Part shown: one piece after another, positions 23,511 to 62,990 of the stretch
How the letters are laid out: each line of letters opens with the position of its first letter
Position numbering within the stretch: the first letter of the stretch is position 1
DNA from: Dipteris shenzhenensis
Taxonomy: Eukaryota
Assembly: GCA_047967505.1 (NCBI GenBank)
Contig: CM106538.1
Reading direction: 5' to 3' (one strand)
Length of the DNA stretch: 64,000 nt
Position numbers and translations under genes: made by a program
The notes under the pieces: model-generated
Seen by the model: the letters and a program-made list of their open reading frames with translations, nothing else
Told to the model about the DNA's origin: nothing
Databases searched by the model: none

Positions 23511-23953
23511 ATCGAGTGTCAAGTGTGCTTAGATGCATCAAAGGCTCCAAGAGGGGAGTGAGATATCATGGTGGCCCCGGTGGTGGGCGGCTTTGCAAGA
23601 GCAGTGTAGAAGTGGGTCAAAATTGCCTTCAAAGACCTCGAAGTGTTGCCAAAAATGCTTGCAGGTGGTCGGCTCTACTGCAGGAGCCTAGGAATCCTAG
23701 GTTCAGCGATGAAGAGCTTCAAAACAGCTTCAGGGAACCACTCCTGCAGGCGCTTGTAGACCAGGGTACCGACAGTAGATAAAAGGCGCCTAGGGGACTC
23801 GAAACAGCCCAGGAATGACACTATTGGAGGCGGTTATGGAGGCAGCAAGCTAGTTAGGGTTTAGGGTTTGTTGGAGAAGATGATGATGTGGCAGGGCATG
23901 CTAGGGTAGGACTAACCTGGCTTTGATACCATGTTAGAAACATGGTGGTGAGA
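23511..23953 (-). mobile_element. LTR-retrotransposon leader fragment (LTR end + tRNA-Met PBS + 5' UTR)
   Basis: Minus strand ...tttctaaCA|TGGTATCAAAGCC (PBS at 23919-23931). Confidence 0.65.
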
Positions 23954-26900
23954 GAAAGAACGAAAGAAAGAAAGAAAGTTTATTAAAGTCTTCGGAAGAC
24001 CGATAGGTCTATGAGACTGTGAAAATTCTGATACAACGAGCTGTGGTAGTGGAGCTACTAAACGAGCATCCATACCAATGCAAAATGCAAAATGCAAAAA
24101 ATGCAAAAATGCAGAATGACAGTACTAAGTCCTAAGTACAACATAGTCATGTTGATGGTAGACTATATATCAATCTCAGCATCATCATCAATATCATCAT
24201 CATCCCTAGCAACAGCAAGATATCAGGATGGATGAGGAGGCGGAGGCATGAAGTCGGCAATAGAGTGCTGTCGGCCACTCAGAGGTGCGGTCCTGGCACA
24301 TCTCCTGGTTGTAGCGCTGCGTCTAACCAAGGCTATTGTGACCCCAGTCGGTCGGGCTCCGACTCTAAACAAGGAGGGGATGTCTCCAAGTGTGATTTGT
24401 GTGTCGACCCTTTGTCTGAGCTGTCGGGTCACGGGCTCCGTGTCACGGTCATGTCGAGGCCTCGTCTCGTTGGGGTCCATGTGATCTAGCTGAAAGAACT
24501 CCGTGATAGAGCTTTGAGAGGGATCAACCAAGGAAGAAGTCTGCTCCTGTCTCCGCGCTCAAAGTATCCTCTCGCGGTGTCTAAGTGCCTCATGAATGAA
24601 ACCTGCCAAACACCGCTGGTCTGGGTAGGAGAGGAAACGGGCTAAAATCCCATAACTATCCCTGAAGAGGCAGTGGAAACATCCTCGGATCTCATAGTAC
24701 ACAGGACACCTGAAGATGAAATGCTCCTCTGTCTCAACCTCCTGTATGTCACGCAGTGTGTATATGCGTCGCTCCATGGGTAGTCGCTCTGCTCTGCCGC
24801 TCTCGATGCAAAGTCTGTGTGAAGAGACCGGGAACTGCCCAAGAGAGATCCTCAGCGAGTGGGGTAGGTGAATCTGTGTGTATCCTGGTGGGTCAATGAA
24901 ACCCTCTGCTGTGATATGTAAGAAGTGATCTCTGTAGAAGCTAAGCTTCACTGGGAGTTCACTCGGTTCCAACCAGGTCTGAAAAGTGTGTAACTGTAGT
25001 AGATCCTCACAGATAACCTGGTTGACCTCGTGTGATAAGAGGGGAGAGAACGGAGCATCCATGCTATACTGGAAGGGAGGTAGTCTATCCATGTGGAGCC
25101 CCAGTTGCTCAAACCATCTCTTTGTACGTGCATACCATCACCTTTGATCTCCTCCTGCTGCAAGTGCCATAGAAGAGGATAGAGCTATCCATGGTAGCCT
25201 GCTACGCCCTGAGGTATAATCTTATATTCCCTAACTCGGTACAGATATGTGATGACTTGAAATGCAGCATCTAGATGTAAAGGGGGTAACCCAAACTCAG
25301 CCTGAATGATCTGGTGAGGAACGGATGACTTACCACGAATCATCCATGATAACATGAGAACCTGTAGCCGCTCCACACGGGCCCACTCTGTATCCGACAA
25401 GTCTGGCCCCCAACAAGGGCTGCCGTACATCCCTGTTGGGCAACCCCTTGGTGCGTGGATCTTGAAAGTGTGAGCGGAAGCACTGCCTCTCTAGCCTGGC
25501 CAATGAGGCATACCCTCTACTCAAGCGTGCCTTCATCGCGGGTCTCATAGTGAAGCTTGGTCCGGAGAAGATAACCCCAGATAAGTGTATGATGAAACTA
25601 TCTCAACAGATGACTCCGCAAATGTGAACTGCTCCTGACGCGTGATGGCTCGAGATATATTGAAGATCATGACCTTGGTTTTACCCAGGTTGACCTTCAA
25701 ATCATGAGACTCACAAAAGGACTGTAGTGCGTCTTGGTGTCTCTGAAGCCCCTCTGTTGATGAAGACAAGAGAGCCACATCATCTGCATAGAGCAAAATC
25801 TGGATCAGCGTGCCCGCAAGAGAGCAACCTACACCCCCCTGTGTCTGCATCACTATCTCAAGCTCGTCAAGGTAGAGGCCAAACAAGGTAGGCGACAAAG
25901 GACAGCCTTGTTTGACCCCGATGGTACTCATGATCTCGTCTGTCCACCTGGATCCTGCTCGAACTCTGCTAGAAACTCTCTCGTAAAGTGCCATGACAGC
26001 CCAAATGATCTCCTGGTCATATATGAGGCGGGCTCTCAGGACCGTGTCAAATGCCTTGCGGAAATCCACAAAGCAACAATAAACCCTCTGCTTCCGTGAC
26101 CTCGCCTCCTTGATGATACATCTGAGCGTGAGAATGTGGTTCATGGTTCCATGATCACGCCGAAATCCGGCCTGTCTTGTTGCTCTAAGTCCTCGACACT
26201 CTGCAAGTTTGCTAACCTTGGAGTCAAGTACTGATGCATAAATCTTGGACATGACATGTCCAATCATAGTGGTCCTGTAGTTCTCCGGGCTCATGGGATC
26301 CCTTGCCTTGTGGATGGGTGAGATAGTGTTAATGGTTCGAGTGTGTGGAAATCCCAAACAAACCGCTTCATTAAAAAGCTTTGCTAAGATCGGGGCTAGG
26401 AGGTTAATCCTATATGCAATGAACTCAGTGCATAGCCCCTCATGATCCTTCGCTCGGCCATTATGAAGTTTCATTATGGCATCCTTTACCCCTCCTCTAG
26501 TGAAGAGGGTGCAGGATGTGGGACGTGGCATGTGTAAGAGGTTAGGGATTGGCTGATTTGGGATGTCATAAAGTGTGTGTGCATAATCAAACCAGATCTG
26601 GGTGTCAGTGAGTGGCGGAGGGGACCGTCCTTCTAGAAATCTCCGCCAGAAGTCCTTAGAGTTGTTACTAAACAAAATGTTCAGTAGCTCCTCCTCGTTT
26701 CGATGAACGAAGTCTAGTTTCTTTCTCCGTACCAGTCCACGGTATTCACGTAGCGTATCTGGTGCGCTTGGAAGACTGTTTTTGGTTTCGAATCTGAGTT
26801 GACGGCGTAAGGCCTTACACTCATCATCGTACCAACTATTACAGGGTACAGTTCCAAGGGGTGGTGGGTGGGTGGTGTGGGAAAAAGCATGAATGACAGC

Positions 26901-28630
26901 CTCGTGTAGTGAGCGGGTGACAAGGGCAGCACGATCCTGTAAAAGGGGTATGAAGTCAATATAAGCGAGAAGTATGTACAGACGGCCAGAGTAAGAAGGT
27001 GAGCGATCCCGATCAAAGCGTATATCGTGGTTGGTGGAGTAAGCACTGAGTGGGGTGGAAGATGCTGTGTGAAGGGAGGTGGAGATGCGAAAGAAAAGGT
27101 ATGTATGATCAGCCCCTGGGGGGAGAGGTGCTACAATGAAGTCAGTAATGCGAGATGTGAAGACAGGGGATCCCATGATGTAATCAACAACACTGGAGCT
27201 CCCCCCATGTGGAAAGCATGTGAAACCACCTGAAGCGTTTCATCTGTCAAGACCATTATAGATAATGAGATCATGTATCCTGCCTAGGTCTAATAGGGCC
27301 TGCCCATAAGATGAGAATGGACCTCGCCTGTCAGCTGAAACCCGTAGCATACCTGCCTCCTCAAGGTCAACATCTGCCAGTAGAGTGGAATCATCTCTGA
27401 AGTCAAGAAGTGGTACCTGACGGGCCCTTGTCCTCGCGTTGAAGTCCCCCACTAGAAGGACTTCTCCGTGGCCAGAAAAGTCAACGATGGACTGATAGAG
27501 GGCAGCAAATGGGGATGTCTCATCATCACCTCGAATATCTTTGGCAAAGTGGGAGCTCCCGGGGGAAAGTAGCAAACTGCGACAAACAGATCCCGGCTGT
27601 CCATGTGTCATCCGAATCCAAAGAAATCTGAATGTGTATCTCTTTGCTCTACTGAAATGATCCCATGAAGTGTGGATATGAAAAGGACTGCAACTCCACC
27701 TGAACCTCGAACTCCTCCTGTACCCCTCGTCTCATCTCTGTAGGCAGACTCCCATGTATATCCACTGACTATTGGAAGAGGGCGCTGTGGACTCTGATGT
27801 GTCTCTGCATAGAAGACTATGTTGTGGCTTGTATAGGATTCCGAGAAGTTTCCTGGTTCTGACCATAAGGTACCATTACAGTTCCAAATGGTGCAGGACA
27901 GTGTCTCGGATATCTGAGTCTCATAGACCCCGCTTCCCTATGTAGCGGAGGGGGCAGGTGCCCTACGAGGGCCTGTAAGAAGTCGTCCCTCCCGTACCAC
28001 TACCCACTTCCCCTCCTTCCGGGCCTGATCCCGCTGCTGCAGCAAAGAGCGCCTCTCCTCAACCTGTAGAGGTGTGAGGTCCTCATCCATAGAGATCGTT
28101 GGCTGATCTCGAAGGAATGACCTGCGTCGTAGAGTTGAAAGTCATGCTTGAGTGTCATGGAATCGTATGATCAGGGGTTGCTCTCAGTTGGGATCTCTCC
28201 CCACCCGCCATGCCCTCTCTATCCTGTGCTCAGCCACACCCAAGGTAGCGGCCACGAACGTAGTCACATCTACCATCGGTGTAGCCTCAGTGCGTGGGAT
28301 CCCGCGTACTCTGATGTTGAGAGCCTTACTGGCTCTCTGCTGTTGCTGCTCCATGAGGGTAGTCGAAACGGTTACCCTTGCGGGTTCCCGTTTGGCCACG
28401 TCAACCCATCTGGAAGTCTCGTCAATAGCAGATTGCATGCTCGCAATCTGTGCCTCGACCACCGGGGTACTCCTTGGGACAGTGTGTATGGAGCTGCATG
28501 ATATATTGTCTGAGTCCCAGAATAAGACCCGCTTGCTCCCGAATGGCCCTAGCCTGCTCCTGTATGATGCGGCTCTGCGCCTGGTTGAAGTGGACCTGCT
28601 CCCGTGCGAAGCGAGTCAGCTCCATCTCAC
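23954..28630 (-). mobile_element. Near full-length RTE-X-like non-LTR retrotransposon (ORF1 ~28625-27940; ORF2 EN-RT ~27925-24559, frameshifted)
   Basis: EN motifs IWNCNG, FYAETH, GSGGVAV, LLVGDFNART; RT motifs QAGFR, CCFVDFRKAFD, GVKQGCPLSPTLFGLY, LLYADDVALL; C-terminal SSHRLCIESGR...ETEEHFIFRCPVY; tail AATAAAC(TTTC)n; ORF1 LNIRVRGI...AWRVG...DEDLTP. Confidence 0.85.
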
Positions 28631-30449: not shown

Positions 30450-33400
30450 CATGGCAGCACCCTTGACTCTCCAAGCCGTTAAGGTTCTTTTCTCTCCAAT
30501 GGACAAATATCAGGTTAGGAATACAGTCTAGTCACTCCAGGATAGAGCTGTGGTGGGCATTATCGTTGGACTCACTCCCATGAGAGTCTGGTGTGTGATC
30601 TAGGCGAATCTAGCACTGGATGGTGACCACATCTAGGAGGTCACCAATTGAGTTCCCCGGACACCACTCAGGACCTTGTGGAGCAAAGCCCCATTTTCCT
30701 TGGCCCTCACGTTGTGTACTTCATCCCCTGTTATCATGGGTTCACAGTCAAGGATGTGGACTCGACAAATCATGTGCCTTGCTTCTTGGTGATGCTCCGC
30801 TTCTCGAGGCTCCCAAGGGACTTCCCCACCAGTTTACACAGCCTCGGTCGTTGTAGATGATGGAGTGCCTTGAATCAGGATGATTGTAGAGATCCTAGCG
30901 TCCCTTCTTGAAAAGTTTTCCTTGAGACCTTGAACGGGGGCGAGTTCTGTCAGAGGATTGATGCCTCCAGACTTCCAGGATAGTGCGTCCGATGTAGGCA
31001 GATGGGTCATTTGGCACGGGCTTGCCCTAGGAGGTAGGGACGGATTGCACCTCTTCAGGCTAGACAGAAATAGCAGAAGCAGACAGATCTCAGCGTCTCA
31101 TTAGGCCGCAGCTAGAAGGAGTCCGGGATCCCTTGGCTAGAGCCCTCCGAGGGGCATGGACTAGGGTAGATAAGAAGCCTAGCAAGAAGGCCACAAAGGA
31201 CCATAGGAGTCTTACTAGAATTAGACAGTGGGTAGCAACAACATCCTCTCCTCAGAGGGAGAGGCTAGATGGGTCCTCTTCTCAGAGGGAGAGGCGAGAT
31301 GGCTTCCCCTCAGGCCATCCCCGGACTTCCTAGGGTGAGGTATTCTTCTACGTCCCAACGGACCCACAAGTGGCAGAGGCCCATCGTTCTCAGTCTTCTG
31401 CACCACGTTAGGCCTCAGGGGAGGCCGCAACTCTGTCTCCTCGTGTTCCCCTAGTCCTCTCCTGCTTTGCCTAGATCCTCTCCGTCCTCCCCTTCTCCTC
31501 TGATCTTCTCTGCATCCTTGTGTTGCAGTCACCCTCACTACGTGCCCCTTGCTTGCCTTGTCTTTGGCTCACCCTTCTTCTTCCCCACTGCAACGGTTCC
31601 CCCTTCCTCCTCTTCTCGCCTCCCGCTCTCGAAGTCTCTGCCTCCTAAAACGCCTAAGCCTTTGGGCAAAGGCAAGGTAGAGACTTCCTTCGCTTAGCCT
31701 CAGGCTTCTTTTGTGCAGTCAAAGCATGGCCTTCTCCTTGCTCAGGACTCATCTTCTATGGAACATGTGGAGGTAGGTTCGTTTGGGAGAGACTAAAATG
31801 AAATCGTTTAGACTTCAGAAGCAGTTGTAGCTTGAATGAAGAGATTTGGACTATTTTTTGATTAGCCTTCTCCTTTAGTGCTAGCCTTCGTCATGGCTGA
31901 GTTTGCCCTTCCCTCCGAAGTGTTGACAGAAACTCAGTACGAAGACTTTGTATAAATGGATGCTCAATTATGTGTGGGTGTGTGGATTTGTATGTGTGAG
32001 AGCATACTTTTATACTATGGTCTACACCCACTGTTGGGCGCTGATGACGTTAGTGGGGATATCATAGTAGCTAGTCCTTGCTATGCGTGATGGAGTTTAT
32101 GGTTTTCAATCTTATGAGTGACCCTCGTGAGATTGAGACTGCTCTATGTTGTGTTTTTAGGGATGAGTTCGGGATTCATCTAGGTATATGCGGAGGCAGG
32201 CATAGATCCCTAGCACATTTTCCCTGAATGATGTAGTGGGCCCAGAAGGTAGGCATAGATCCCAACATGCCTCTGATGCGTTGTTGCACGGATGAGGAAT
32301 ATTTTCCTTACCTCCTCAAGATTTGGAACATGGTGAGCTAGAACATGCACGAGTTTCTTGATAGTGCACGACAACAGCCATAGCATCTGATACTCCACTA
32401 GGAGTTCTAGAGGCTAGTTGCAGGAGTGGCATTGGATTTTCTACTGATTCAGAAGCATATGTTCTCACCATCGGATATCAGTCGTCGCCATTCCTTGCTT
32501 TTGGGGAGGGACTTAGAGGTGTGGTCCCTGGCTTAGGCCGGAGTGGCGAGGTAGTGGCCCCAAACGTTTTTGATCAGGGTCCCTGCGTGTAGGCGACCCC
32601 CCTGTCTTTTGGAGGCGGTTGATAGAGGGCATGCTAAACGTTGACTCTTGGATTGCTCGAGGACAAGCAAGGGGAGTTTCTTTCTCATAGGTGTCCGCAA
32701 TGGAGAGGAGTACGTGCGAGTTGTTCATTTCATGATCAACGGTCATGATCTATGGAGAGAGGCGGAGTTCACCAGGCTCCCTGGCAGCCTTCTCTTTTCT
32801 TTTGGCCACCGAAGGCATGATGGCCTTCTAGAGCGCCTTGACAGGTTTTACATGGGGGATTGGACGATGTACAGAGTGGGTTCCATGGTGGTATTTTGGC
32901 AATCACAACGATATCAGATCACTCCTAGATTGTGATGCACTTAGAGCAGCCTTGACATGGACTCTCTCAGAAGGGGGTCTGCATTTAGATGCTCTACTTC
33001 AGGAGGAGGAGGTATAGTAGGACATGTCTACGATTTGGGAGCAGCCAGGGGGTGCTTTCGAGGATGGATGGGCTACTTGGATTGGCAGACACGATACACG
33101 ATTCAGAGGAGTTGTGAGGGGCTCCATTCCCTGGCTCTTGGTTGGAGGCATGCTCTACAAGAGTGCGAGAGAGAGCCCCGAGAAGGGATTCGACATCTAT
33201 AGAGTGCCCTAGGGAGCATGATTTGGACTCTCAGTGTCTCGACGGTTGGTACGAGAGTGCGCGGCTTGATCTTTATTGCATAGAGGTCCGATGAGCCGAG
33301 TTCTCTTATCACTCTTCTCGAGCCAGATGGGTACAACAACGAGACAAGACGACCATACAGTTCTTGTAGACCACTAGGCCACGATGAGCCGAGACTCAGC

Positions 33401-35231
33401 TTCAGCGGTAGAGGGACGCGAGTGATCATAGACTTCTATTGCCAATTGTTTTAGTTCAAGAAAGAGTCTCTTTCTATTTTTGTAGCCCAAGAGGCAGTGT
33501 GGGATCAGATTTTGATAGTAGTCCCTCCGAGCTTGAGTTGGTAGTTAGAGGCACCGTTCATTGATGAGGAGCTCTAGGAGGCCCTAAAGTCCCTTCCGGC
33601 TTAGAATCGCCTTGGGGAGGATGGCTTGAATTTGTTCTTCTTTCGCTACTTCTGGGAGCATATCCTCACCTCCCTTCGGCTGGCTTTTTAGGAGATCTTT
33701 GACTTAGGCTCTCTTCCTTAGTCCTTGAGTTGAGGTTGGATTTGTTTGATCCCGAAAGGGAAGAGGGGGGGGTCAAACATTCGTTAGTGGAGGCCGATCA
33801 TGTTGCTGGACACTGCTCAAGATCTTAGCCAAGGTCTTGAGTTTGCGGTTGAGGCCTCACCTCGTTGATATCATCCAGGATACACAGATAGATTTTGTTT
33901 AGGAACGGAGCATCTTAGACAACATCTTAACCTTTTGGGAGGCAGTGGATTGGGCACGAGAGGAGTCTTAGCCTATCACAATCCTTCTTTTGGATTTCGG
34001 GAAGGCCTATGACAGGATGGGGAGTGGTCCTTTTTGGAGGGCACTATCAGAGGATGGACTTCTTGGAGAGATGGATTCGAGGGGTCTCGGCTATGTATGC
34101 CGGGAGTACTAGTCAAATGCTCATTGGAACCACATGGGAGAGGCCTTTGCCCTGTATTGCTCAGTACGACAGGGTTGCCCCCGTCCTCTTCCTCTTTGTA
34201 GTAGAGGTTTTGGGCTACTTTTTGCATTCTCAGGTAGCAAGACTCAATGCGATGAGGCCTCCGATTCGACTTTTGGATTCAGAGTTTGCAGACGACACTT
34301 CATTCTTTGTAGAGGGCACTAGCGAAGTACTGCTTGGCCTCGAGGGTCAGGGTTTCCTCACGACGATTGAGGAGGTCTAGGAGATCCAGAATTGGGGGGT
34401 AGTGCTTGGCTTCCATTGGATTCCGAGGGCTAGGCTGCTAGGTTGGCATTGACATTTCAGCAGAGCAGTAGTTTGCTGGAGTATTGGAGATTATGCGCTA
34501 GAGAGAGTTTGGTTGAGCTCCAATATAGAAGCTTGCATCAGGATCAGATGGTACGAGGAACACTAGAGCTGGGGTTACTTGGTAGATGGTGATTCTACCA
34601 CTCTCACAGGGAGGACTCGGCATTATCGACCCAAGAGATACATAGTAGAGACTTTTTGGACAAGCTAGTAGTACAAGGTCTCAACCCAGGCTCTGAGCTC
34701 GCACTCCGACGAGGGCTTATCAGGAACACCCCCACATCGGGGGAAAGTGGCAGCAATCTTATAGATGGATCTTCTCAGAGGCTCCCCTCATAGGGAAGGG
34801 CTCCCCCATCATGCGTAGCCTTCGCAGGGTTTGGCAGTGTTTGTCTAGTGGCGGACTCATTTGGGCCAGCCCTTCGTGTCCGGAGGAGTTTGAGAGGCAG
34901 TCAATCATTTGGCACTCGGAGGTGCTGGATCAAGAGGGATGCATGCTGGGGCAGCAGACATGCATTGGTTGGGCGGGATGAGACAGTGGTGTATCTAGGT
35001 CCTTTAGGACATGGAGATGCTTCCCTGCGGAGAGAGAGGCACGAGAGCAAGCACTTTCTCATCTGAGAGGGGCAGGCACATGGATGACGGAAGCAATTGT
35101 TGGTCCACAAATCTATCCCTTAGGAATTGAGCATGCTTGCCAAGTGGGGGAGGGCAGGGAGAAGACAGGCTGTCTGGTCTGAGTCGTTCTCCATCCCTAG
35201 GAACCCTTGCTACTACTAGCGGAAAAAAAAA
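30450..35231 (+). mobile_element. Decayed L1-clade LINE in sense orientation within host intron 3
   Basis: LERLDRFY (EN), LIPKG...WRPIMLL, LLLDFGKAYDR, SVRQGCP, SEFADDT; A-run at 35223-35231; boundaries approximate. Confidence 0.75.
31778..32187 (+). mobile_element. 5'-truncated single copy of the ~560-bp structured non-coding element, inserted into the L1
   Basis: Clearly homologous to the 36699-45497 monomers; flanked by atgtggaggtagg (31765-31777) and atgcggaggcagg (32188-32200). Confidence 0.85.
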
Positions 35232-35532
35232 CCTGCTGCTGTGAGTCAAGTAGGATTGAGAAAGAAGTACTTAAAACTCTCATGATCATCCTCAGTTCAA
35301 ACTTTGATCATGAATGGGGGGAAACCGATTTGTCTCAAGCGACAGTAGTAGTTTCTGGAAACATAATGCTATGTAGAAAAGCTATGGTTATATTGCCAAA
35401 AAATGTGCAGTATAACTTTCTATTACACATATAACTTAATTGAAGGGACAACGTGGTACTTTTTAAAATCTGTTTTGAAGAATTTTAAGAAAAAACATGA
35501 TCTTCCAAAACTTAATGTTACTCATCTTGCAG

Positions 35533-35633
35533 CTCTTGAGGAGTGGCGCAAAAAGAAGTTGGATGAAGCTAGGCGGCGTGCAGAGACGGTAAAAGCCAAG
35601 CAAGAGGAATACCTGAGTTCATTGGAGACCTAA
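35533..35633 (+). CDS. Host gene exon 4 (ALEEWRKKKLDEARRRAETVKAKQEEYLSSLET*)
   Basis: Acceptor catcttgcAG|CT, phase 1 with exon 3 (G+CT=Ala). The ALEEWRK(R/K)K motif is typical of the recalled family. Total CDS 540 nt ending in TAA. Confidence 0.85.
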
Positions 35634-37038
35634 CCAGACGGTGCTCATTCGCATCAATGATCGAATCTTAAATGTAAGTATTTAAAGGCACTGACATATC
35701 AGTTTCATGTCTCGCTGTTATTAGTCTAAATTCTCTTGGTGAATTTGGTGACTTTGGGGCAGCATTCCAGAGTGCCTGCTGAGAGCACCTTTGCAAAGAA
35801 GTTTCAAATTTATGAGCGTATTTGCATAATTGAAAACAAGTGTACTATGGAGCTCTTACTGAAGTTTCAGGGATTAACTCTCATCTATGGTATAGGGCAA
35901 GTGTTTTACCTAAGAGCACACCATTGAATGGTAAATACCCCTATTGTCACAGTTTAAAGCATTTTAGTGGTTATTTCTAATTTCATTTAACAAAAGGCTA
36001 TTATCTTGACAAAATACTGAAATGTTCTGCTCATTTCAAGTTTCCAAGATCTCTGATTATTGTCCATGATACATTAGGTCTACTGGCTGTGCAATGAAGG
36101 ACTCGAATGAATATTCAAAGCCTTTATAATATTCTGCATGACTTTTGTCCTGGATTGTCTGCGGACTCTTGTTTTATACTCCGCACATTCTTTCACTTCC
36201 ACACAATCTTCAAGGTACCATAATTGGAAGAAACTGATGGATCAAGAATAATGTCTGAGAGAAGTTTCCTGAATTTTGTCCATCATCATTCATAGCTTCC
36301 TACTGGATGCAGAATGGAGGAGTAGGCTTCCTGTTCATGCTCTTGCCGTACTCTCCATTTTGGCCGCCTGTTATGTCATTTCACATCCTTTAAAACAGGT
36401 GATGAGGATTAATAAAGTTAACTGAGAGGGTCAAAAGGTTTGAAGGCATTTATTGTTCCCTTGTAGCATATTCCAAGAGGTCAAGGTATCTCTGCAAGTG
36501 TGGTTTCCTGTAGAAACTTTTAACAGTAGAATTTGAAAAGCAGTCAGTGCCGTATTTTAATTATATCACTGTCAGTGTATGGAAATTTTACAAGCACAGA
36601 AAGATTCTCAAACTCTGCTGAGGTTGACGGATGTCACGATCTCTAACGTCTAGCCTTGTCTTCCTCTCTCGTTCTTTGGTGTTAGCCTGAAAAAGCTGCG
36701 GCCTGCTGGTATTGTGATAATTCTTTCTATCTTAAATGGTGCGTTGCCCTATCAGCTAGATTTAGATTTAGATGCTCGTTGGGGAGAGACTAAAATGAAA
36801 ATGTTTAGACTTCACAAGTAGTGTAGCTTGAATGAAGAGATTTTGGACTACCTTTTGATTAGCCTTTTCCTTTAGTGCTAGCCTTCATCATGGCTGAGTC
36901 TGCCCTTCACCTCCGGAGTGCCGACAGAAACTCAGTACGAAGACTTTGTATAAATGGATGCTCAAGTATGTGTGGGTGTGTGGATTTGTATGTGTGAGAG
37001 CATATTTTTATACTATGGTCTACACCCACTGTTGGGCG

Positions 37039-40000
37039 TGTTGAGATATCAAGCTCTATCCCCGACATATCTCCTGGATGACTATCATTTATGTCACCGC
37101 CTATGTTAGTTGTACTCGTGGTGTAGTTAGACTACCACGTATGTTTTGGTTTGGGTTCACATATGAACCACGTATTCTAGGGTTTGACATATAGGGTATT
37201 TCCCTCTTCTATTGTAATTGTCGTGTGCAAAAGTGAAGAAAGGCTTCACCCTCCAACCTTGTGTCCTCTCTCTTTTGTGTGTTGTGAAGAAAGCTGAACT
37301 TGAGTCTCCTATCTCTCTCCCTTCTTCTTTACATGGTATCAGAGCCTTGTTCGTGGTAAGGAGCTCAAGAAAGCAAGCCAAGTTTGTGGTGTCCTGGTAA
37401 GAGGACCAGTGTTGCTTTCCTATTTCGAGTTTGGGAGCAAATCTCTGCAGGTAGCACAGCCAGAAGTGTCTGAGTGCACTGCTTCAGATTGAGAGGCCCT
37501 TCGCGGTGTGGCGAGAGCGCGCGGCCAGTCGGTGGAAAGGTGCCACAGAAATTGCATCGTATGCTTGTGTGCAGAGATATTGGGAGTTGCAGATTCATGC
37601 CTGTTGCCTGTTGATGCAAAATCGTCACTAGGAAGTGACTGTGTGGTGAAATACCACTTTCGTCAGTGTTGCAGATCTGCCCCTGTGAGGCTTTTTGCAG
37701 AAGTTTTGCTATTTACCCTTGTGAGGCATTTGCTGTGTTTACAGGTTGCTGTTGCAATTCGTGATTTGTAAAATGTCTGAGAATCTGTCTACCATTGTCA
37801 GTGAGAAGCTTGACAAGAACAACTTCCAAGCATGGAAGTTCCAGGATGACAAACTTCCTTATGGGAAAGGGAGTTTGGGATTACATCAGTGGTGAAACTA
37901 CAGAACCAGTTTTGGGTGCTGCTCCCACTCCTGCTGAATTGAAGGCCTTTAAAGAATGACATGAAAAAGCCAGAAAATGCTTGTATTGGCTGTCTGTTAG
38001 CATTTCAGATTCTATGATTGTGCATATACAGGATGTAGAGACACCTAAGGAGGCATGGGATACATTGGTGAAGCTGTATAGCACAAATACCAAAGCACGA
38101 AAGATGCAGCTAAAGCAGGAGTTGCACAATGTGCAAAGGAAAAATATGAATATAAATGAGTATTCCTTGAAGGTGAAAGGCCTTGCAGATTCTCTTGCCT
38201 CCATTGGAGCACCTGTTGATGATGAGGACTTAGTGTCCGTGACCTTGAATGGTCTTGGGAAAGATTATGCACAGTTTCGGACATCCATTGGAGTCCGTGA
38301 AACATTTCTTGATTTTCAGGAACTTATTGCTCTCTTGCTGAGTGAAGAGCAAAGGAATGGTGGTTCAGCCACCTCAACTTCTCAAGAGACTACTTTCTAC
38401 TCGAATACAGGTAGAGGCAGAGGTAGAGGAAGAGGCCGTTTTGGTGGCCGTGCAGGAAATCAGAACCAACAGCAACAACAGGAAAACCAGTCCTATGGAG
38501 GAGGACGTGGTAGTTCTAGAGGCAGGGGGAGCCAAAGAGGCCGTGGTTCATGGCAAAGGAACCAGCAAGTAAATAGTAGCACAGAATGCTATTATTGTGG
38601 AAAGCCTGGACACAAGAAGAATACATGCTATAAAAAGCAGAATGACATCAAAAGTGGGAAGTTGCAGCAAAGCAACTATGCATCATCAAGTGGGCATGGT
38701 GACGACAGAAATGAGCACCTTTTTGTGATGCAGCATATGGTTAACTCCATGTCAGGAGATGCTGCAGCTTGCAATGATGTTTGGTATGTTGATTCAGGTG
38801 CCTCTAACCACATGACCAGTCATGGTGAGTGGTTTCATGATGTTAGAAATTTGGATAAGCCAGGTTATGTTGAAACAGGTTATGATACTGTGTACCCAAT
38901 TACGCAGGTTGGTAAAGTGCCATTGGCTATGCAGGATGGCAAAACGAAGTACTTGCCAGATGTACTTCATGTTCCAAAAATCACTAAGAACCTGGTTTCA
39001 GTTGGCCAGATGGTTGAGCAAGGTCTGCAGGTTAGATTTAATCCTGATGGATGCTTTGTTGAGGACTTGAAAAATAAGTGCCGCTTGGTTGCGAAAGGCA
39101 ACAAAAATGGCAGAATGTTCACCTTGGATGTTGATATGCCTGAGGTGAAAGCTGCTATGTTTGCGCATGGGAGAGGTGTCATTGCAGATATTGAGATATG
39201 GCACAAGCGCATTGGGCACGTGAATATACAAAGGCTGAAATCTATGCAAACGAAAAACATTGTTGCAGGTTTGCCTAAATTCAGAGTTGAGGGAATGCAA
39301 AAGGTATGTGAAGCATGCCAAATGGGTAAGCAGGCCAGACATGCATTTCCCAAAAATGCTAAGGTGAGCAGAAGACCTTTGGAAGTGATCCATTCAGATG
39401 TTTGGACAACCAAAGCTGCTTCTATTGGTGGATGTCATTATTATGTGACGTTTATTGATGACTACACTAGGAAGGTGTGGATTTATTTTATGAAGCACAA
39501 AAGTGAAGTGTTCAGCCATTTCAAGGCTTTTAAGGCCATGGTTGAAAAAGAGAAAGGTGTGCATATTAAAGTGCTAAGATCTGATGGAGGGGGAGAGTAC
39601 TTTTCAGAAGAATTTTGTGAATATCTGAAAGAACAGGGAATTCAAAGGAAGTACTCATGCAAGTCTACCCCTCAGCAGAATGGGGTTGCAGAAAGGAGGA
39701 ACATGGATATTGCAGAAGTAGGACGGGCGATCCTAAATGAGAAAAACATGCCTGATTATTTTTGGGCTGAAGCAGTAGCAACTGCTGTTTATATTATGAA
39801 CAGAACTCCCACTGCAGCTGTCCATGGCATGACGCCTGAAGAAATGTATACAGGCCAAAAACCAGATATTTCTCACTTGAAGGCATTTGGTTGCATAGCG
39901 TATGTTCATGTTCCTGATGAGAAGAGAACCAAGCTGGATCCAAAGGCAGAAAAATGCATCTTTATTGGATATGCTCAGCACCAGAAAGGGTATCGCTGTT

Positions 40001-42382
40001 ATAACTCTTCCACTCGCAAAATGCAAGTGAGCAGAGATGTTGTTTTTGATGAAATGAGCAGCTGGTATGCACCAACTGTTATGGTAGGAGATGCAGATGC
40101 AGGAAATGGGAATGCTGCAATAAATGCAGAGCAGCAATCTCAAGTCTTGAGTGGACCCAGAGAGTCCTCTACTAGTGGATCTAATGCATGGACAGGGAGA
40201 TTGAGATCTAGTGAATCGTCACATGGCAGTCCTGATAGTGTTGTGCAGGTATCACATAAGGGAAAAGAAAAAGTGGACCATACTCCAGTGTTTGATGTGT
40301 CTGCTGGTAGCTCTCATGTTGATGGAGAGTCAAGCGGCTCTGAAATGAGCCTTGATGAGGAACTTGGGATTCCTTTTGTTGTTACACCTGGTGCAAGGAA
40401 AAGCAAGCATGATTTAAAGACTCCTGCAACTGATCCAGTTGTACGGAGGTCCACTCGTATTAAGTATCCAGTTGACAGGCTAAGATATGATGGGTATACA
40501 GCACATCACTATGCTTATATGGTCAAGGTTCTAGAGGAGCTTGAGCCCACATGTTTTGAGGATGCAGCAGGGCATAAAAATTGGGAAGCAGCTATGGATG
40601 AAGAGATGGCTGCCTTGGATGCAAACCACACTTGGGATTTGATGTCTTTGCCTCATGATAAGAAGGCTATTGGCTGCAAGTGGGTTTACAAAGTAAAGCA
40701 CAATGCTGATGGGTCTGTTAGCAGGTACAAGGCAAGATTGGTTGCCAAAGGTTTTGCGCAGACATATGGAATTGACTATGAGGAAACTTTCAGCCCAGTT
40801 GCAAGGATGGCAACCGTGAGAGCAGTAATTGCTATGGCTGCTGCAAAGGGATGGTCTTTGCATCAGATGGATGTGAAAAATGCCTTCTTGCATGGTGATT
40901 TGCAGGAAGAGGTTTATATGATGCAGCCAGAGGGTTATGAGGATAATGCACACCCCGATTTTGTATGCAGGTTGTGCAAAGCCTTGTATGGCTTAAAACA
41001 GGCGCCGAGGGCATGGTCAGACAAGATAGGGCAATATCTTGTCACTATTGGATTTCAGATTTTCAATTCAGATTTTTCACTTTATGTGAAAAGGACAAAC
41101 AAAGGGATTGTGCTTATCGTCATCTATGTTGATGACTTGATTATTACAGGTGATAGTGATGCAGACATTAATGAAGTGAAGCTGCTGTTGAAGCATAAAT
41201 TTGAGATGAAGGATTTGGGAGAGCTGCGTTACTTCTTGGGCATTGAGGTTATTAGATCCCCGAGTGGGATATGGCTGTTGCAAAGGCAATACGGTTTGGA
41301 CATGCTGTCCAAATATGGGATGATAGGCTGTAAGCCTATTTCTGTTCCATTGGAGCAGAATGTGAAGCTCAATGCAGAGACAGGTGAGCTTCTTGAAGAT
41401 ATTACTATGTACAGGCGCATAGTAGGTAGCTTGATTTACATGACTATAACCAGACCAGATTTGAGCTATGCTGTGGGGCTGGTGAGTCAGTTTATGCAGG
41501 CACCGAGGAAGCCACATTTGGATGCGGCTAGGCGCATACTCCGGTATGTGAAGTCCACATTGCATTATGGACTGCTTTATGAAGCTGGGTGTGCATTACA
41601 GGTATATGGATACACAGATGCTGACTGGGCTGGTAGTGTCTCAGACAGGAGATCTACTAGTGGTTTTATGTTTTCCCTTGGGAGTGGTGCCATCAGTTGG
41701 AGCAGCAAGAAGCAGCCAACAGTTGCCTTGTCGAGCACAGAGGCTGAGTACAGGGGTGCAGCAATGGCTGCATGTGAGGTAGCTTGGTTACGGAAGCTAC
41801 TTGCAGATATGGGACACTCAGTTCATGCAGCAGTTGTCATTCATTGTGACAACATTAGCAGCATCATGCTTGCTAATAACCGAGTTTATCATGCTAGAAC
41901 GAAGCACATTGAGGTGCATTATCACTTTGTGAGAGAGAAGGTTCTAGCTGGTGAGATTGATCTTGTCTATGTCAGCACTGAGGAGCAGGTGGCTGATATC
42001 TTTACGAAGGCATTGGGTACCGAGAAGCTTCGCAGATTTAGGAGCTTGCTTGGTGTACGTGAGATGGATTTGAGCTTGAGGGGGAGTGTTGATATATCAA
42101 GCTCTATCCCCGACATATCTCCTGGATGACTATCATTTATGTCACCGCCTATGTTAGTTGTACTCGTGGTGTAGTTAGACTACCACGTATGTTTTGGTTT
42201 GGGTTCACATATGAACCACGTATTCTAGGGTTTGACATATAGGGTATTTCCCTCTTCTATTGTAATTGTTGTTGTGTGCAAAAGTGAAGAAAGGCTTCAC
42301 CCTCCAACCTTGTGTCCTCTCTTTTGTGTGTTGTGAAGAAAGCTGAACTTGAGTCTCCTATCTCTCTCCCTTCTTCTTTACA
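37039..42382 (+). mobile_element. Full-length young Ty1/copia LTR retrotransposon
   Basis: 5' LTR 37039-37333 and 3' LTR 42087-42382 (TG...CA, only a few differences); PBS tggtatcagagcc 37334-37346; PPT gagggggag 42078-42086; TSD GGGCG/GGGCA. Confidence 0.97.
37773..42129 (+). pseudogene. Copia gag-pol polyprotein (gag, CCHC, PR, IN, RT, RNase H), disrupted near its N terminus
   Basis: ATG at 37773 (MSENLSTIVSEKLDKNNFQAWKF), +1 frameshift at ~37841 and a TGA (Trp codon) at ~37957, then a 1382-aa open frame with CYYCGKPGHKKNTC, WYVDSGASNH, DD..E core, YVDD and ADIFTK. Confidence 0.93.
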
Positions 42383-45300
42383 GGGCACTGATGACGTCAG
42401 TGGGGATGTCATAGTAGCTAGTCCTTGCTATGCATGATGGAGTTTATGGTTTTCAACCTTGTGAGTGACTATCATGAGATTGAAACTGCATTATGTTGTG
42501 TTTTTGTGTTTTTAGAGGATGAGTTTGGGAATGTTCCTGGATTCATCTAGGTATATGCTTCTGCCGTATTAGCGGACATGCAAATTTCACCTCGTGAAGT
42601 TTTCGTCCAAGTTGCGGTCTGCTGGTATTGTGATAATTCTTTCTATCTTAAATGGTGCGTTGCCCTATCAGCTAGATTTAGATTTAGATGCTCGTTAGGG
42701 AGAGACTAAAATGAAAATGTTTAGACTTCACAAGCAGTTGTAGCTTGAATGAAGAGATTTTGGACTACCTTTTGATTAGCCTTCTCCTTTAGTGCTAGCC
42801 TTCATTTTGAATCTGCCCTTCATCTCCGGAGTGCCGACAGAAACTCAGTACGAAGACTTTGTATAAATGGATGCTCAAGTATGTGTGGGTGTGTGGATTT
42901 TTGTGTGTGAGCATATTTTTATACTATGGTCTACACCCACTGTTGGGCGCTGATGACGTCAGTGGGGATGTCATAGTAGCTAGTCCTTGCTATGCATGAT
43001 GGAGTTTATGGTTTTCAACCTTGTGAGTGACTATCATGAGATTGAAACCGCACTATGTTGTGTTTTTAGAGGATGAGTTTGGGAATGTTCCTGGATTCAT
43101 CTAGGTATATGCTTCTGCCGTATTAGCGGACATGCAAATTTCACCTCGTGAAGTTTTCGTCCAAGTTGCAGCCTGCTGGTATTGTGATAATTCTTTCTAT
43201 CTTAAATGATGCGTTGCCCTATCAGCTAGATTTAGATTTAGATGCTCGTTGGGGGGAGGGGTGGTTTGAGAGCTTTAGCACAACATCTTAGATGGGGTAG
43301 TTCTTGGAAAACACTCCTCCACCCTTGCTTAGCTAATTGCAAGCAAAAAACTTCAAAACTATATTAAAATAAGAGGTCCCGGGAGGCTCCCCATCCCAGT
43401 TTTGTCCTAACAATGTGTACTTAACCATGTAGGTTTTAAAATTCCATTACCAATTCAACTCTCCATAGATTCCACACACAATAGTTGGATTAGAAAGAGG
43501 TCTCTTTTTTTTTTTTTTTGCTCTTCATGCTTTTGGAGGGATTGCTCTCTCCCCCCAAAAGCATGCTTTTTTGGGGGGATTGCTTCTTTCCCCCCAAAAG
43601 CCTATTTTTGGATTGCTTCTTCCCCTTCTTTGCGTGATTTCTTGCCTTCTTCCTCCGCCGTCCTCGTCCTCCTCCTTCGCTTCCTTCCGTCCTTTCATCC
43701 GTGCCACTCCGTTAAGGCCTCCTACGCTGCTGCTGTTTCGGCGCCCTCCTCGTCATCTCTTCCTCCGCTGTGCTCTTTCCCCTGCCGTCCTCGTCCTCAG
43801 TTTCGGTTGCGCTCTTTCCCTCTACCGTCCTCGTCCTTAGTTTTGGCCTGCACTACCACAGTTTCCTCTACCATCCTCGTCCTCAGTTTCGGCTGCGCTA
43901 CCACAGTTCCGGCTGGCTGCGCTACCACAGTTCCCTCTGTCATCCTCGTCATCAGTTTCGTCTACGCTACCATAGTTTCGGTTGCCTTCGCCACTCATTT
44001 CCTCTGCAGCACAGTTTCAGCGCCGCTCTGCTTTTCCTCCTCCGTAGCATAGTTTCAGTGCCGCTCTACTTTTCCTCCGCACATGTTTTCTTCACAGTTA
44101 TTCAGTGGCAGGTTCGTAGCCCTCAGCAGGCCCATTCTTCTTCGCCAGCGTGACTGTCAGTGAGGCTTCTGTGTCGTCAACAACAGTCTGAAGCTTCTCC
44201 TTTTTCGAGTTAATCTCACGGAACCCCTCTTCACGAAATCCCCTTTGGACAAAATCCCCTCAGCTCCTACGATTGCTTGAAATCCAAAGAGCAGAAGCTC
44301 ACAAACAACAATGGCTACTCAATCATCCAAGTAAGAAAATGAAAGAAATCGAAAGTGTACCTAATTCATGCATGTTCTCCACTTTCTCCATTTCGGAACA
44401 CCACGATTTGAAACAAAGAGTCTTGTAAAAGTAGGAATCTCAAAATGTGATTTGAAAGTAGGGTCTTAAGTATATGATTTGACTTTCATATCTTCAAATT
44501 TGAAATTTGAATTCTGTATCTAAGATTAATGAAAATGTTTAGACTTCACAAGCAGTTGTAGCTTGAATGAAGAGATTTTGGACTACCTTTTGATTAGCCT
44601 TCTCCTTTAGTGTTAGCCTTCATCATGGCTGAGTTTGCCCTTCACCTCTGGAGTGCCGACAGAAACTCAGTACGAAGACTTCGTATAAATGGATGCTCAA
44701 GTATGTGTGGGTGTGTGGATTTGTATGTGTGAGAGCATATTTTTATACTATGGTCTACACCCACTGTTGGGCGTTGATGACGTCAGTGGGGATGTCATAG
44801 TAGCTAGTCCTTGCTATGCATGATGGAGTTTATGGTTTTCAACCTTGTGAGTGACTATCATGAGATTGAAACTGCACTATGTTGTGTTTTTAGAGGATGA
44901 GTTTGGGGATGTTCCTGGATTCATCTAGGTATATGCTTCTGCCGTATTAGCGGACATGCAAATTTCATCTCTCGTGAAGTTTTCGTCCAAGTTGCGGCCT
45001 GCTGGTATTGTGATAGTTCTTTCTATCTTAAATGGTGCGTTGCCCTATCAGCTAGATTTAGATTTAGATGCTCGTTAGGGAGAGACTAAAATGAAAATGT
45101 TTAGACTTCACAAGCAGTTGTAGCTTGAATGAAGAGATTTTGGACTACCTTTTGATTAGCCTTCTCCTTTAGTGCTAGCCTTCATCATGGCTGAGTCTGC
45201 CCTTCACCTCCGGAGTGCCGACAGAAATTCAGTACGAAGACTTTGTATAAATGGATGCTCAAGTATGTGTGGGTGTGTGGATTTGTATGTGTGAGAGCAT

Positions 45301-46379
45301 ATTTTTATACTATGGTCTACACCCACTGTTGGGTGCTGATGACGTCAGTGGGGATGTCATAGTAGCTAGTCCTTGCTATGCATGATGGAGTTTATGGTTT
45401 TCAACCTTGTGAGTGACTATCATGAGATTGAAACTGCACTATGTTGTGTTTTTAGAGGATGAGTTTGGGAATGTTCCTGGATTCATCTAGGTAGATATTA
45501 GCCTCAAAAAGCTGTGTAGTAGCTCTTTTGAAGTTCCAGAATCTTTTGTGAGCGGAGCAAAGTTGCCAAGGAGGATTTTCTTTACAAAGTGATGTGAAAA
45601 GCAGATGCAAATAGTATCTCGTTATCACATGGGATGCCTTGATCCAATTTCAAACACAATTCTCTAACAGGCTGGCATAATGAAGTATTTTTTAAAAAGG
45701 CAGGCCCTTTTTTTGTGCCAGAGGGACTTCTTTTTTGTCATTCGAAAGATATCTTTTGCCATCTTGGTTTTCACATGCACAATTTATTGGGTGTACATGT
45801 GGATGATTAGCTCGCTGGTAGGCATTGGATGTTGTTAGTACCTGCCATTGTCGAAGTCCCACTAGGATATACTGTGGGTGGTTGTGATTGTTTGCATACT
45901 AGGTAAAATGCCATTTTTGGGCAAGTGGCTCTACTCCTTACTCCTTATTCTGCTTGCTTGCCCCTTCCTCTTTCTCTCCCACTTCATTTGGTTCCCCCTC
46001 TCCACTCTAGGCTGTTGACTGCCTTAAGGCTTGTTATTGGGCTTTTACTATTTTATCATATCGGGGTAAGCTTCCTTTGCTTCTTGATCAATACTGGGGG
46101 TTGATGTGCTTGGTATTGTTTCAATATGTTGAGGGATACACAAGGGTGTTTTATCTCTTGAGATCTTCACTTTTTGACTGAGAGTTTTTGCCAAGCTTAT
46201 TATTTTTTCCTCCTTTTTATTACAATTATCAATTGTGGCATCACAATTTGTGTTGTAACTATTTGATTTTCAATGAAAATGATTCCAAGGGGTACATAAA
46301 TTTTACTTCAGTGGGCCATTGAGGTTTGGCTCTAATTGGATAATCCTTGCATGCATGCCCAACTCCGTAGTCTCTACAC

Positions 46380-46600
46380 ACAGGTTGAAATGTATTTGGG
46401 CTACTTTATGTGTGGTGATCCAACTATACTCTATTTCAACAACGTGAGTAATATTTACTTGGCAAAGAAAACTAGTGTTTCATGCCAAAACAAAAACATA
46501 TTGAAGTGTATTATCACTTCATTAAGAAAGTTCTTAGTGGGTGAGATTGGTCTTGTTCAAGTTTGAATAAGAAGTAGTTAGCTACTTCCTATAACATCTT
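46380..46600 (+). mobile_element. Decayed copia RNase H fragment
   Basis: PTILYFNNVSNIYLAK followed by frameshifted FHAKTKHIEVYYHF-like sequence. Confidence 0.55.
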
Positions 46601-48985: not shown

Positions 48986-49095
48986 TGACTCTATGCCAAC
49001 ATGGACTTAGGTAGAACAGAATGTGTGTGTAGAGTAGTGGCAAAACTCCGCTTATACTTGCATTAGGCTAGAAATAATTACTCTTAGAAATCCAA

Positions 49096-49560
49096 CTTGC
49101 ATGTTCTACATGCAAGTTCTACATGCAACTCCTACATGAGAGTTGTACATGTGAGTTCTACATGCGAGTTCTACATGCAAGTTCTACATACAGCTCCTAC
49201 ATGCAACTCCTACATCCGAGTTGTACATGCGAGTTGTACATGCAAGTTGTACATGCGAGTTGTACATGCGAGTTGTACATGCAAGTTCTACATATACGAC
49301 TTACATACAACTCCTACATGCAACTCCTACATGCAAGTTGTACATGCCAGTTCTACATGCAAGTTCTACATGCGAGTTCTACATGCGAGTTGTACATGCA
49401 AGTTCTACATACGACTTCTACATACAACTCCTACATGCAACTCCTACATGCGAGTTGTACATGCAAGTTCTACATGCAAGTTGTACCTACGACTTCTACA
49501 TGCAACTTCTATATACAAGTTCTACATGTGGAGAGAGAATGTGTTACAATTCCTACATGC
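49096..49560. repeat. 13-bp minisatellite (consensus GC(A/G)AGTT(C/G)TACAT), roughly 35 units
   Basis: Directly visible periodicity; produces spurious repetitive ORFs in three frames. Confidence 0.95.
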
Positions 49561-61300: not shown

Positions 61301-62990
61301 CAGCAGGTGCCACAAAATTACTGTTTGTAGTCCTTCTCATTAGCAATCCTCTTCTGACACTCGGCAATGTAATGACCAGGCTTTTTGCAATAGTTACATT
61401 TACCCTTTTTCTTAGAGGCGGGACTTGCCTGAGAACTTGCATTGGCCTCACTTTTGGGCTGAAATCCATTGCTGTTTTTTTTGTGAAAGTATCCTCCTTT
61501 TGACTGAAATTTGCCCTTTCCCTGCATAGCAAGAGCTTGCTCACCTTGGCGAGATGAATGAGCAAAATTAGAGGTTCTTTCCTCTTCTTGCAGGAGCAGC
61601 CCTACGAACTCATCAAATGAGACAGGTGCAGCTCTAAGCATGATAGACAAAGAGGTAACAAAAGTGCCAAATGACGGAGCCAGGCTATTGAGAGTGATAG
61701 TGACCAACTTTCTGTCTTCTATCTCCTCATCAACGCCTGCTAATTGATCTCTAAGATCAGTAATCTTAGCAATATGCTCTGCAATTGTTTGCCCTTCTTC
61801 CATCTTCAACTCCTTGAGTTGATTTGTCAAAGCTAGCACTCTAGCTTCATTTTTGACGTGATACATAGATGCCAGTTTATCCCAAGCATCTTTAGCATAC
61901 ATGCAGGACTTGATAGTAGACAATGTACCTCTTCACTGAGAGGGATATCAAAGATAAAGCCTGGGCATTTCTTCTATCAAACCTCCTTTGCTCCTCCAAT
62001 AGAGCAGGAGTAGGAGCTATGGATGTAGATGTGATGGATGAAGATGAACTAGTTGCAGCAGCAGCTAGCCTAGTTTCATCACCACTCACAATGTCCCACA
62101 AGCCCTTGCCAACCAAAATATTGCGGAGCATAAATGACCACAAGGCATAGTTTGATCCTTCCAATTTATCCCCTTTTAGTGATAGTGCCAAAGCTTTCAG
62201 AAAGAGACATTATTCCTGACAAATAACTGACAAGAAGATTTGGGTGTCCAAGAAGCAGGAAAAGAGCGCTGAAGCAAATCGATTTGAAGTAGGAGCTTCC
62301 GAGGTGGATGTCAGTTTGATTCGGGGCTGGAAATTGCTGAGAAGAGCACCAATGTAGCAGTAGATGAACTCGTATTGAAGAAGATGGCTGCTGCTACTGA
62401 GAAGAGCATCAATGCAACTATAGGAGACTGCTGTAGGCAGTAAAAAACAGCAAGAGGAGATGCCGAAAAGTGCTGGAAATCAGGGCGACCTGAAGTAGAA
62501 GCCCCCGGGCTCAAGGGCGACCTCAAAAAGAGGGGCGAAGTGAAGGCGACTTGATCTGAAGCTGTTCGGCCTGAAGTCTGAAAATCAGCAACATTGGTTG
62601 TCGACCAAGTCCTGGAGAAAGGCGACCTGAAGAAGACCTCCCGGGGCAGCAAAAAACTCAAGTTCTTCACAGCAACTGACTGAAAAACGAGCTGGAAACT
62701 GAAGTGGGCTGAATGTAGGATTGAGAGCAACACGAGGACACGAGAGAACTTGCCACAAGACGGAAGGCAAGGCTGAATCTCGGTTCAAGTGACTGAGGCT
62801 CTGATACCACTTGAAGGAACACAAATGGAGACAAAAGTGAACACCAGTGAATGGATGTGCTCACACACGAAAGCTCCAACAGATGTTCAATAGATAAGAA
62901 TACAAAGTACTTGGCATATATAGTGACCAAGTAGAACATAAAAATAAACCAAGTACTAGACTAGCCTACAAGGTCATATCTTTGTATATG
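58345..62990 (-). mobile_element. Decayed Ty1/copia element, 3'-truncated within RNase H; 5' LTR remnant from 62812, PBS 62797-62809
   Basis: PBS tggtatcagagcc; gag DKLEGSNYALW and CNYCKKPGHYIAEC; WYLDSGASKH; IN; RT with YVDD; ends at GFTDSDW; several frameshifts and a stop. Confidence 0.92.

Follow-up and report, generated by a model that had tools for sequence, protein, structure and literature searches.

Positions 36699-45496 of a 64,000-nucleotide stretch of Dipteris shenzhenensis DNA (assembly GCA_047967505.1, contig CM106538.1; the whole stretch is referred to as the window) hold, once two later insertions are taken out, 3.9 head-to-tail copies of a 562-bp unit that lacks an open reading frame (ORF). 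The window is plant DNA rich in transposable elements, with three gag-pol frames of the copia type, a gypsy fragment that has a chromodomain, and one long interspersed nuclear element (LINE). The unit is probably a non-autonomous, non-coding retroposon inserted by target-primed reverse transcription (TPRT), with this locus representing one 3.9-unit event. A first-pass annotation, made from the sequence alone, had described about 3.9 head-to-tail copies of an ORF-less monomer after removal of two insertions, and this description was confirmed when the array was resolved by a direct-repeat search, BLAST of a single unit against the window, and MAFFT alignment.

Structure of the array and its boundaries

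The unit starts with GCTTCTGCC... and ends with ...CATCTAGGTATAT. Unit lengths in the array range from 554 to 562 bp, and pairwise substitution differences range from 1.6% to 3.3%. The unit sequence contains no ORF of 100 amino acids or more, and all of the frames listed in 36682-45514 fall within the two later insertions. The last unit, unit D, ends in ...CATCTAGGTAGAT, which is the canonical ...GGTATAT with one substitution, and an extra A (45497) stands before the right copy of the flanking repeat. The last bases of the array are those of the canonical 3' end of the family.

The left (TTAGCCTGAAAAAGCTG) and right (TTAGCCTCAAAAAGCTG) copies of the 17-bp direct repeat lie exactly at the two array ends and match at 16 of 17 positions, with the combined form TTAGCCT[G/C]AAAAAGCTG. 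When the two 45-nt junction windows were shuffled 2000 times, no match of this quality appeared, which upholds the bounding repeat reported in the first-pass annotation. The microhomology reported at the left junction is also present, with AAGCTG/CGG in the flank and AAGTTG/CGG in the unit, amounting to 2 nt if exact (TG) or to 5/6 (AAGyTG). When 300 nt of each flank was aligned with a unit dimer, the score was reached by 132 (left) and 133 (right) of 200 shuffles, and the possibility that the flanks are decayed monomers was rejected. A 14/15 match of the left flank to an internal unit segment was equaled by 3 of 200 shuffles and is treated as chance. Because the flank alignments to the unit are no better than those of shuffled flanks, the array is an insert in unrelated DNA. 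No TG..CA ends, terminal inverted repeat, or poly(A) was found in the unit, and no primer-binding site (PBS) within 2 mismatches was found in any unit or junction; sequence inspection and the PBS and inverted-repeat searches agree on this point with the earlier description. The stretch preceding the next unit is not rich in purines, and no polypurine tract (PPT) is present. The array also differs from a Helitron, which inserts between A and T without duplicating the target and has 5'-TC...CTRR-3' ends, as shown by the 17-bp duplication and by the bases flanking the ends, G/C on the left and A/T on the right.

Within the array, the three unit junctions are the same in register and carry no duplications. 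Among the 25 aligned variable sites in units A to D, 24 are private to one unit and 1 is shared two and two, with most of the changes being transitions. Because 24 of the 25 sites are private, the four units arose together and not stepwise. In addition, the divergence among the units exceeds that between the long terminal repeats (LTRs) of the copia element that splits unit A, where 292 aligned bases hold 2 differences, with a further 6 gap positions, and this fits a later arrival of the copia element. Units A to D thus began identical at one time, before copia arrived, and no homogenization or re-duplication has occurred since.

Table 1. Coordinates of the array, its later insertions, and associated features in the window
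Feature	Position	Strand	Description
LINE fragment	24559-27731	minus	564-aa frame: APE-type endonuclease end and RVT_1 (E 1e-25)
Solo copy, fifth of the family	31780-32189	+	92-93% identical; 5'-truncated, starts at ~unit position 138
Left target-site duplication copy	36682-36698	+	TTAGCCTGAAAAAGCTG
Unit A, part 1	36699-37038	+	5'-truncated, begins 59 nt into the unit; TG microhomology to target
Insertion 1, Ty1/copia LTR retrotransposon	37039-42382	+	complete element; splits unit A
Unit A, part 2	42388-42556	+	reaches the unit's 3' end
Unit B	42557-43110	+	full length, 554 bp; two small private deletions
Unit C, part 1	43111-43258	+	
Insertion 2, composite	43259-44527	.	1269 bp, made of other repeats; splits unit C
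Insertion 2 part	43259-43519		261-bp repeat ending in a T16 run
Insertion 2 part	43520-44080		CT-rich, several overlapping short tandem repeats, periods 24-69
Insertion 2 part	44081-44511		repeat with other flanks in run X1
Unit C, part 2	44528-44934	+	
Unit D	44935-45496	+	full length, 562 bp
3'-terminal hairpin of unit D	45457-45488	+	14 bp, several G.U pairs, then 8-9-nt tail; same hairpin in A, B, and C
Right target-site duplication copy	45498-45514	+	TTAGCCTCAAAAAGCTG

Other copies, RNA signals, and the search for a partner enzyme

One correction is that the unit is not limited to the array, a solo copy being present at 31780-32189 in the same window. This copy ends at ...CTAGGTATAT, the same 3' bases as in the array, and is flanked by ATGTGGAGGTAGG (31765-31777) and ATGCGGAGGCAGG (32188-32200), a 13-bp duplication that matches at 11 of 13 positions. 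The two mismatches are both C/T transitions, and a match this good was reached by 12 of 2000 shuffles.

Contigs of four public sequencing runs were aligned to 31000-46500 at 88% likeness. In runs X3 and X15, the depths summed over the unit bins run from hundreds to thousands, against about zero on the unique flanks, and the unit family is hence repetitive in these samples. In runs X2 and X15, contigs leave the unit at 42556, 42557, 43113, and 44934 (4 of the 24 loose-end rows listed, out of a set with 3166 further rows), which puts these exits 0 to 4 nt beyond the ...GGTATAT of units A, B, and C. Their continuations past the unit end differ, with an agreement of 0.43 to 0.5 where several contigs were pooled. 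Since the contigs leave the unit at the same 3' end with differing continuations, other copies stop where the array stops. One contig of depth 27 from X15, which is an RNA library, joins the unit 3' end to unit position ~166, a weak observation from a single contig. The features expected of a satellite are missing, in that the array ends at the family 3' end inside a duplication and dispersed single copies exist.

Relatives of the unit were found in another plant host. A 19-mer of the unit retrieved 30 loci among metagenome contigs, an earlier 20-mer having given 0 matches in the first metagenome scan and 0 in the viral scan. Twenty-nine of the 30 fetched loci are homologous to the unit and fall into 10 distinct loci of that host, with the members of each locus group being 95 to 100% identical over kilobases and hence the same locus; the remaining one (L005) is a chance match without homology. 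Similarity between loci is confined to the element, from ~unit position 128 to the 3' end. The 5' starts occupy nine different unit positions in the nine loci measured, and the 3' region is common to the related copies, with pairwise alignments ending where the window unit ends. Direct repeats bound the element at 4 of the 10 loci, matching at 17/17 (L007/L024), 16/18 (L010), 17/19 (L017), and 11/12 (L003) positions. Each related locus holds one copy, and no second copy placed like the partner of an LTR pair occurs within several kilobases. In L001/L003/L012, the upstream copy of the duplication runs directly into ~105 nt from the 3' region of the element, after which come a ~540-nt copy and the downstream copy of the duplication. 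The alignment scores of this partial tandem are 43 in L001 and 41 in L003; the best of 200 shuffles gave 26 and 30, respectively. The architecture of L001/L003 is the same as that of the array, namely, a truncated copy before one or more full-length copies, head to tail, within one duplication.

The ORFs near the 10 related loci belong to host genes (aminotransferase, zf-CCCH, DUF7086, and proteasome repeat), with no reverse transcriptase among them. At L007, a 5'-truncated copy with a perfect 17-bp duplication (2171-2518, + strand) lies ~50 nt upstream of the DUF7086 ORF (E 8e-49). At the L008/L020/L021/L023/L027 locus, an open frame of 129 to 130 amino acids starts in the 3' part of the element and runs downstream, with no Pfam match.

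The arms of the 3'-terminal hairpin are GGAUGAGUUUGGGA and UUCCUGGAUUCAUC, followed by the short TA tail UAGGUAUAU. The hairpin is predicted to fold at -16.8 kcal/mol on the + strand, with a z score of about -5, and at -6.4 kcal/mol on the - strand; the fold is weaker on the other strand because several of the hairpin pairs are G.U. This strand bias of the modeled fold indicates a putative RNA-level signal on the + strand. The terminal hairpin is also present in two related copies (L007 and L004) and has decayed in most, with z near 0 in 7 of 9. Covariation of the hairpin between the two hosts was considered and rejected, as the stems are in different register and most related copies are decayed.

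Rfam was searched at E<=1 over 36000-46500 and at E<=10 over a ~1-kb unit dimer, and neither search returned a ribozyme, a tRNA, or any other family; no tRNA, 5S, or 7SL match that would mark the head of a short interspersed nuclear element (SINE) was obtained at E<=10. ARAGORN predicted 0 tRNA genes in 31000-46500. An acceptor-like pairing in the first ~70 nt, which had been seen by eye as a possible tRNA-like head, was dropped, with both ARAGORN and Rfam being empty. The only CTGATGA...GAAA pair of the unit is 87 nt apart with 0 bp of closing helix in a descriptor scan; in 8 of the 9 related copies scanned, GAAA follows no CTGANGA, and the pair in L019 is 98 nt apart, also with 0 bp of closing helix. 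Rfam and the descriptor scan therefore agree with the first-pass annotation that no canonical hammerhead core is present. The fold of the whole unit is only moderately better than those of shuffles (z -2.7) and is not viroid-like. The 19-mer GTCTACACCCACTGTTGGG (unit ~350-395, e.g., 45315-45360) is kept in the window copies and in the related loci, a conservation that is a selection effect, since the related loci were picked by the 19-mer. In the same unit region, a possible 7-bp stem, CCCACUG/CAGUGGG, surrounds CTGATGA and is kept in the same copies, and none of its pairs covaries. A conserved core RNA structure was rejected, as RNAalifold gave only -9.6 kcal/mol for 13 copies, with a double change in 1 of 20 pairs.

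The search for an autonomous partner covered the window and the neighborhoods of the 10 related loci. A Penelope-type reverse transcriptase with a GIY-YIG ORF was found in neither, and the tails of the unit and of its relatives have no significant match elsewhere in the window. The LINE on the minus strand carries, downstream of the frame given in Table 1, a 192-aa frame with the Cys/His motif HFIFRCPVYYEIR. Its 3' untranslated region runs into an apparent LTR end and then into the PBS-like sequence TGGTATCAAAGC at 23920-23931 (minus strand), and its own 3' end is missing for this reason. In a protein-cluster look-up, the LINE reverse transcriptase matched generic RVT_1 and APE-endonuclease clusters only.

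Later insertions and other repeats in the window

The copia element that splits unit A has LTRs of ~295 bp (37039-~37333 and ~42088-42382), a PBS (TGGTATCAGAGC) at 37334-37345, and a gag-pol frame of 1389 amino acids (37960-42129) with gag, protease-like, integrase, and RVT_2 domains. It is flanked by a 5-bp duplication, GGGCG/GGGCA, at 37034-37038 and 42383-42387. Its summed contig depth in run X3 is 1.4-4 x 10^5, compared with about 0 to 1 on the unique flanks. A second copia-type element lies on the minus strand at 58345-62809, with RVT_2, integrase, and gag frames and an exact copy of the same PBS (TGGTATCAGAGC) at 62798-62809; additional PBS-like sites, with 1 mismatch each, are located at 14619 and 48650.

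The first part of the composite insertion in unit C (43259-43519) is matched over exactly this span by a run X2 contig whose sequence differs on either side, and it is possibly a small element of the SINE type that ends in poly(T). In unit coordinates, the insertion at 43259 is within ~10 nt of the start of the solo copy. A stretch that is CT-rich in a way similar to the middle part of the composite occurs just upstream of the solo copy (31300-31700), and self-BLAST gave no significant similarity between it and 43520-44080. Three tandem repeats are found elsewhere in the window: ~370-bp units in about 3 copies (18695-19792; 91%), ~105-115-bp units in several copies (49085-49530; 78-88%), and a 139-bp unit in 2 copies (1006-1284; 91%). 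Many air-metagenome runs contain about 27 to 33% of the words of 36200-46100, which fits airborne pollen or spores of the plant or its relatives.

Origin of the array and comparison with known systems

The fixed 3' end, scattered 5' ends, duplications of 12 to 20 bp, junction microhomology, and strand-specific 3' hairpin are together the signature of TPRT. This pattern is found in six independent insertions, two in the window (17 and 13 bp) and four in the related host (12, 17, 18, and about 19 bp), which supports the TPRT-type insertion proposed in the first-pass annotation. The multimer is best read as a single insertion because it has a single duplication and 24 of its 25 variable sites are private, and the partial tandem in the related family adds to the support for this part of the earlier proposal. 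From these features, we infer an enzyme that is either Penelope-like or a LINE recognizing the 3' stem-loop, together with a multimeric-template or template-jump step.

In the mechanism that we propose, a partner reverse transcriptase would start cDNA synthesis at a fixed site just past the 3' hairpin and short TA tail and proceed toward the 5' end, halting at a variable point, and staggered nicks 12 to 20 bp apart would give rise to the long duplication. The multimer could form in two ways. On reaching the 5' end of one RNA, the enzyme may jump to the 3' end of another, template jumping of this kind being known from work on R2. The template may also be a multimeric RNA produced by read-through of a tandem source copy, on which synthesis would start internally at the hairpin of one unit. 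A purified Penelope-like enzyme is described as starting reverse transcription internally on unprocessed RNA in vitro (PMC11167929). In either case, the product would be a 5'-truncated unit plus three full units with the canonical 3' end and one 17-bp duplication, in which the copia element and the composite insert would have landed later.

Several points weigh against this account. Six of the 10 related loci are without a clear duplication, and neither the window nor the neighborhoods of the 10 loci yielded a partner reverse transcriptase sharing the 3' end. The LINE at 24.5-28 kb was rejected as evidence of a partner, its 22-nt similarity to a related tail scoring 27 against a shuffle maximum of 28 and not being among the best BLAST matches. 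Penelope-like insertions typically carry a 30-40-bp tail, which is absent here (the 3' ends differ by 0 to 4 nt among few copies). For the true 5' end of a full-length unit, the three internal junctions of the array are the only evidence. The run contigs come from other samples, perhaps of other species, and their depth is not copy number; with the unique flanks at about zero depth in the contigs of the four runs, no empty-site allele was seen there. In addition, the family may already be catalogued in repeat libraries, in which case the locus would be merely a well-preserved instance of it.

The array could instead have grown stepwise, with one unit or a 1.9-unit dimer inserted by TPRT and then multiplied by unequal crossing-over or by repeated insertions targeting the 3' end of the resident copy, which we consider unlikely. 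Tandem arrays generally grow by unequal exchange, and the X15 contig that joins the 3' end to unit position ~166 suggests that other kinds of head-to-tail junctions exist in the family. The Penelope endonuclease of Drosophila virilis, which is reported to cleave a Penelope fragment carrying the tail (PMC11167929), also speaks for this course. However, duplications spread out in time would leave nested shared changes instead of the observed private ones, the three junctions are identical in register and lack internal duplications, and the first junction would still need a dimer, which is itself a multimeric insertion. A mobile origin would be dispensed with altogether if the array were a local tandem duplication or satellite, or an LTR-internal-LTR array of the TRIM/Cassandra type, next to which the flanking repeat is incidental. 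The length would fit three times a 508-bp "LTR" and 54-bp "internal" segment plus an LTR, the unit has a TATAAAT box, and small LTR elements are known to form tandem arrays in plants (PMC7215508). Even so, this origin is hardly credible, since the duplication measures 17 bp instead of 5 bp, TG..CA ends are missing, the 54-bp segment has no PBS within 2 mismatches, and the related loci are single copy, with no LTR pair within several kilobases; moreover, truncated copies have long duplications of their own, and the flanking repeat is far beyond chance (0/2000 shuffles).

The first-pass annotation had proposed a retrozyme-like element, in which the unit RNA would be self-cleaved and circularized and a reverse transcriptase would run around the circle several times. 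The identical unit junctions and single long duplication are consistent with such a course, CTGATGA occurs in the unit, and the unit bins reach a depth of 260 to 1320 in the RNA library X15, compared with 120 to 350 over copia, in a library in which DNA may be present and depth is a poor measure. In the X15 contigs, a circle junction is indistinguishable from a genomic tandem junction. This explanation is nevertheless highly improbable. No Rfam ribozyme of any class was detected at the thresholds given above, the CTGATGA...GAAA pair has no closing helix, the arrangement is likewise absent from the related copies, and the whole-unit fold is unlike that of a viroid. A rolling circle would give neither truncated single copies sharing one 3' end nor a junction of the 3' end to position ~166, and no PBS, PPT, or 4-bp duplication is present. 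The retrozyme-like assignment is therefore not supported, and no evidence was obtained for a circular-RNA template.

If the reading as one TPRT insertion is right, the locus is a clean, datable case of a retroposon making a four-unit array at birth, which is one proposed origin of satellite DNA, and multicopy head-to-tail insertion, as described for algal and animal Penelope-like elements, works in a land plant without a hammerhead. The conserved 3' hairpin also offers a handle for finding the partner enzyme.

Among known systems, SINEs paired with "stringent" LINEs, such as eel UnaL2/UnaSINE1, have a 3' stem-loop and short repeat tail that are recognized by the partner. The unit is like these pairs in its 3' hairpin and short tail, lack of poly(A), 5' truncation, and variable duplications, but it has no tRNA, 5S, or 7SL-like head, and no tail-sharing LINE was found in the window. 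Stringent LINE/SINE pairs are not known for multi-unit insertions. The units of metazoan non-LTR retrozymes measure 170 to 400 bp, compared with 562 bp here. These retrozymes are described (PMC7229834; bioRxiv 10.64898/2026.07.22.740005) as likewise small, non-coding, head-to-tail units without an LTR, PBS, or PPT, with duplications of >4 bp when present, as here, and as proposed to be mobilized by Penelope-like elements. They carry a type I hammerhead, often minimal, in each unit and give abundant circular RNAs, whereas no ribozyme was detected in the present unit. Plant LTR retrozymes (PMC4918200; PMC7229834) are also non-autonomous, non-coding, and a few hundred bases long, and the array period resembles one of their LTRs plus a short interior. 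However, their type III hammerheads within LTRs, tRNA-Met PBS, PPT, 4-bp duplications, and dependence on Ty3/gypsy have no counterpart here, and they accumulate as circular RNA of 600 to 1000 nt. Because the searches returned neither a hammerhead nor any other Rfam ribozyme, the unit is by definition not a retrozyme.

The closest behavior is that of the non-autonomous Penelope-like elements found in the green lineage (the Chlamys group, such as MRC1 of Chlamydomonas), for which insertions of several copies in head-to-tail order are reported and which belong to a wider group in which the Naiad clade also lacks a canonical hammerhead (PMC8557442). Head-to-tail or partial-tandem insertion with 5' truncation is seen here in the array of 3.9 units, the first of which is truncated, and in the partial tandem of L001/L003. 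The hosts of the Chlamys group are green algae and the present host is a land plant with a genome rich in transposable elements, and only the behavior matches. By its behavior, the unit probably belongs to a known category, non-autonomous TPRT retroposons that insert as head-to-tail multimers. More tentatively, and with rather low probability, it may be the land-plant equivalent, lacking a ribozyme, of the animal non-LTR retrozymes and the algal non-autonomous Penelope-like elements, in which the 3' hairpin would let a reverse transcriptase initiate within multimeric (or circular) transcripts and so seed arrays in one event. If this were the case, the family would provide a direct route from mobile element to young satellite that is conserved in two plant lineages.

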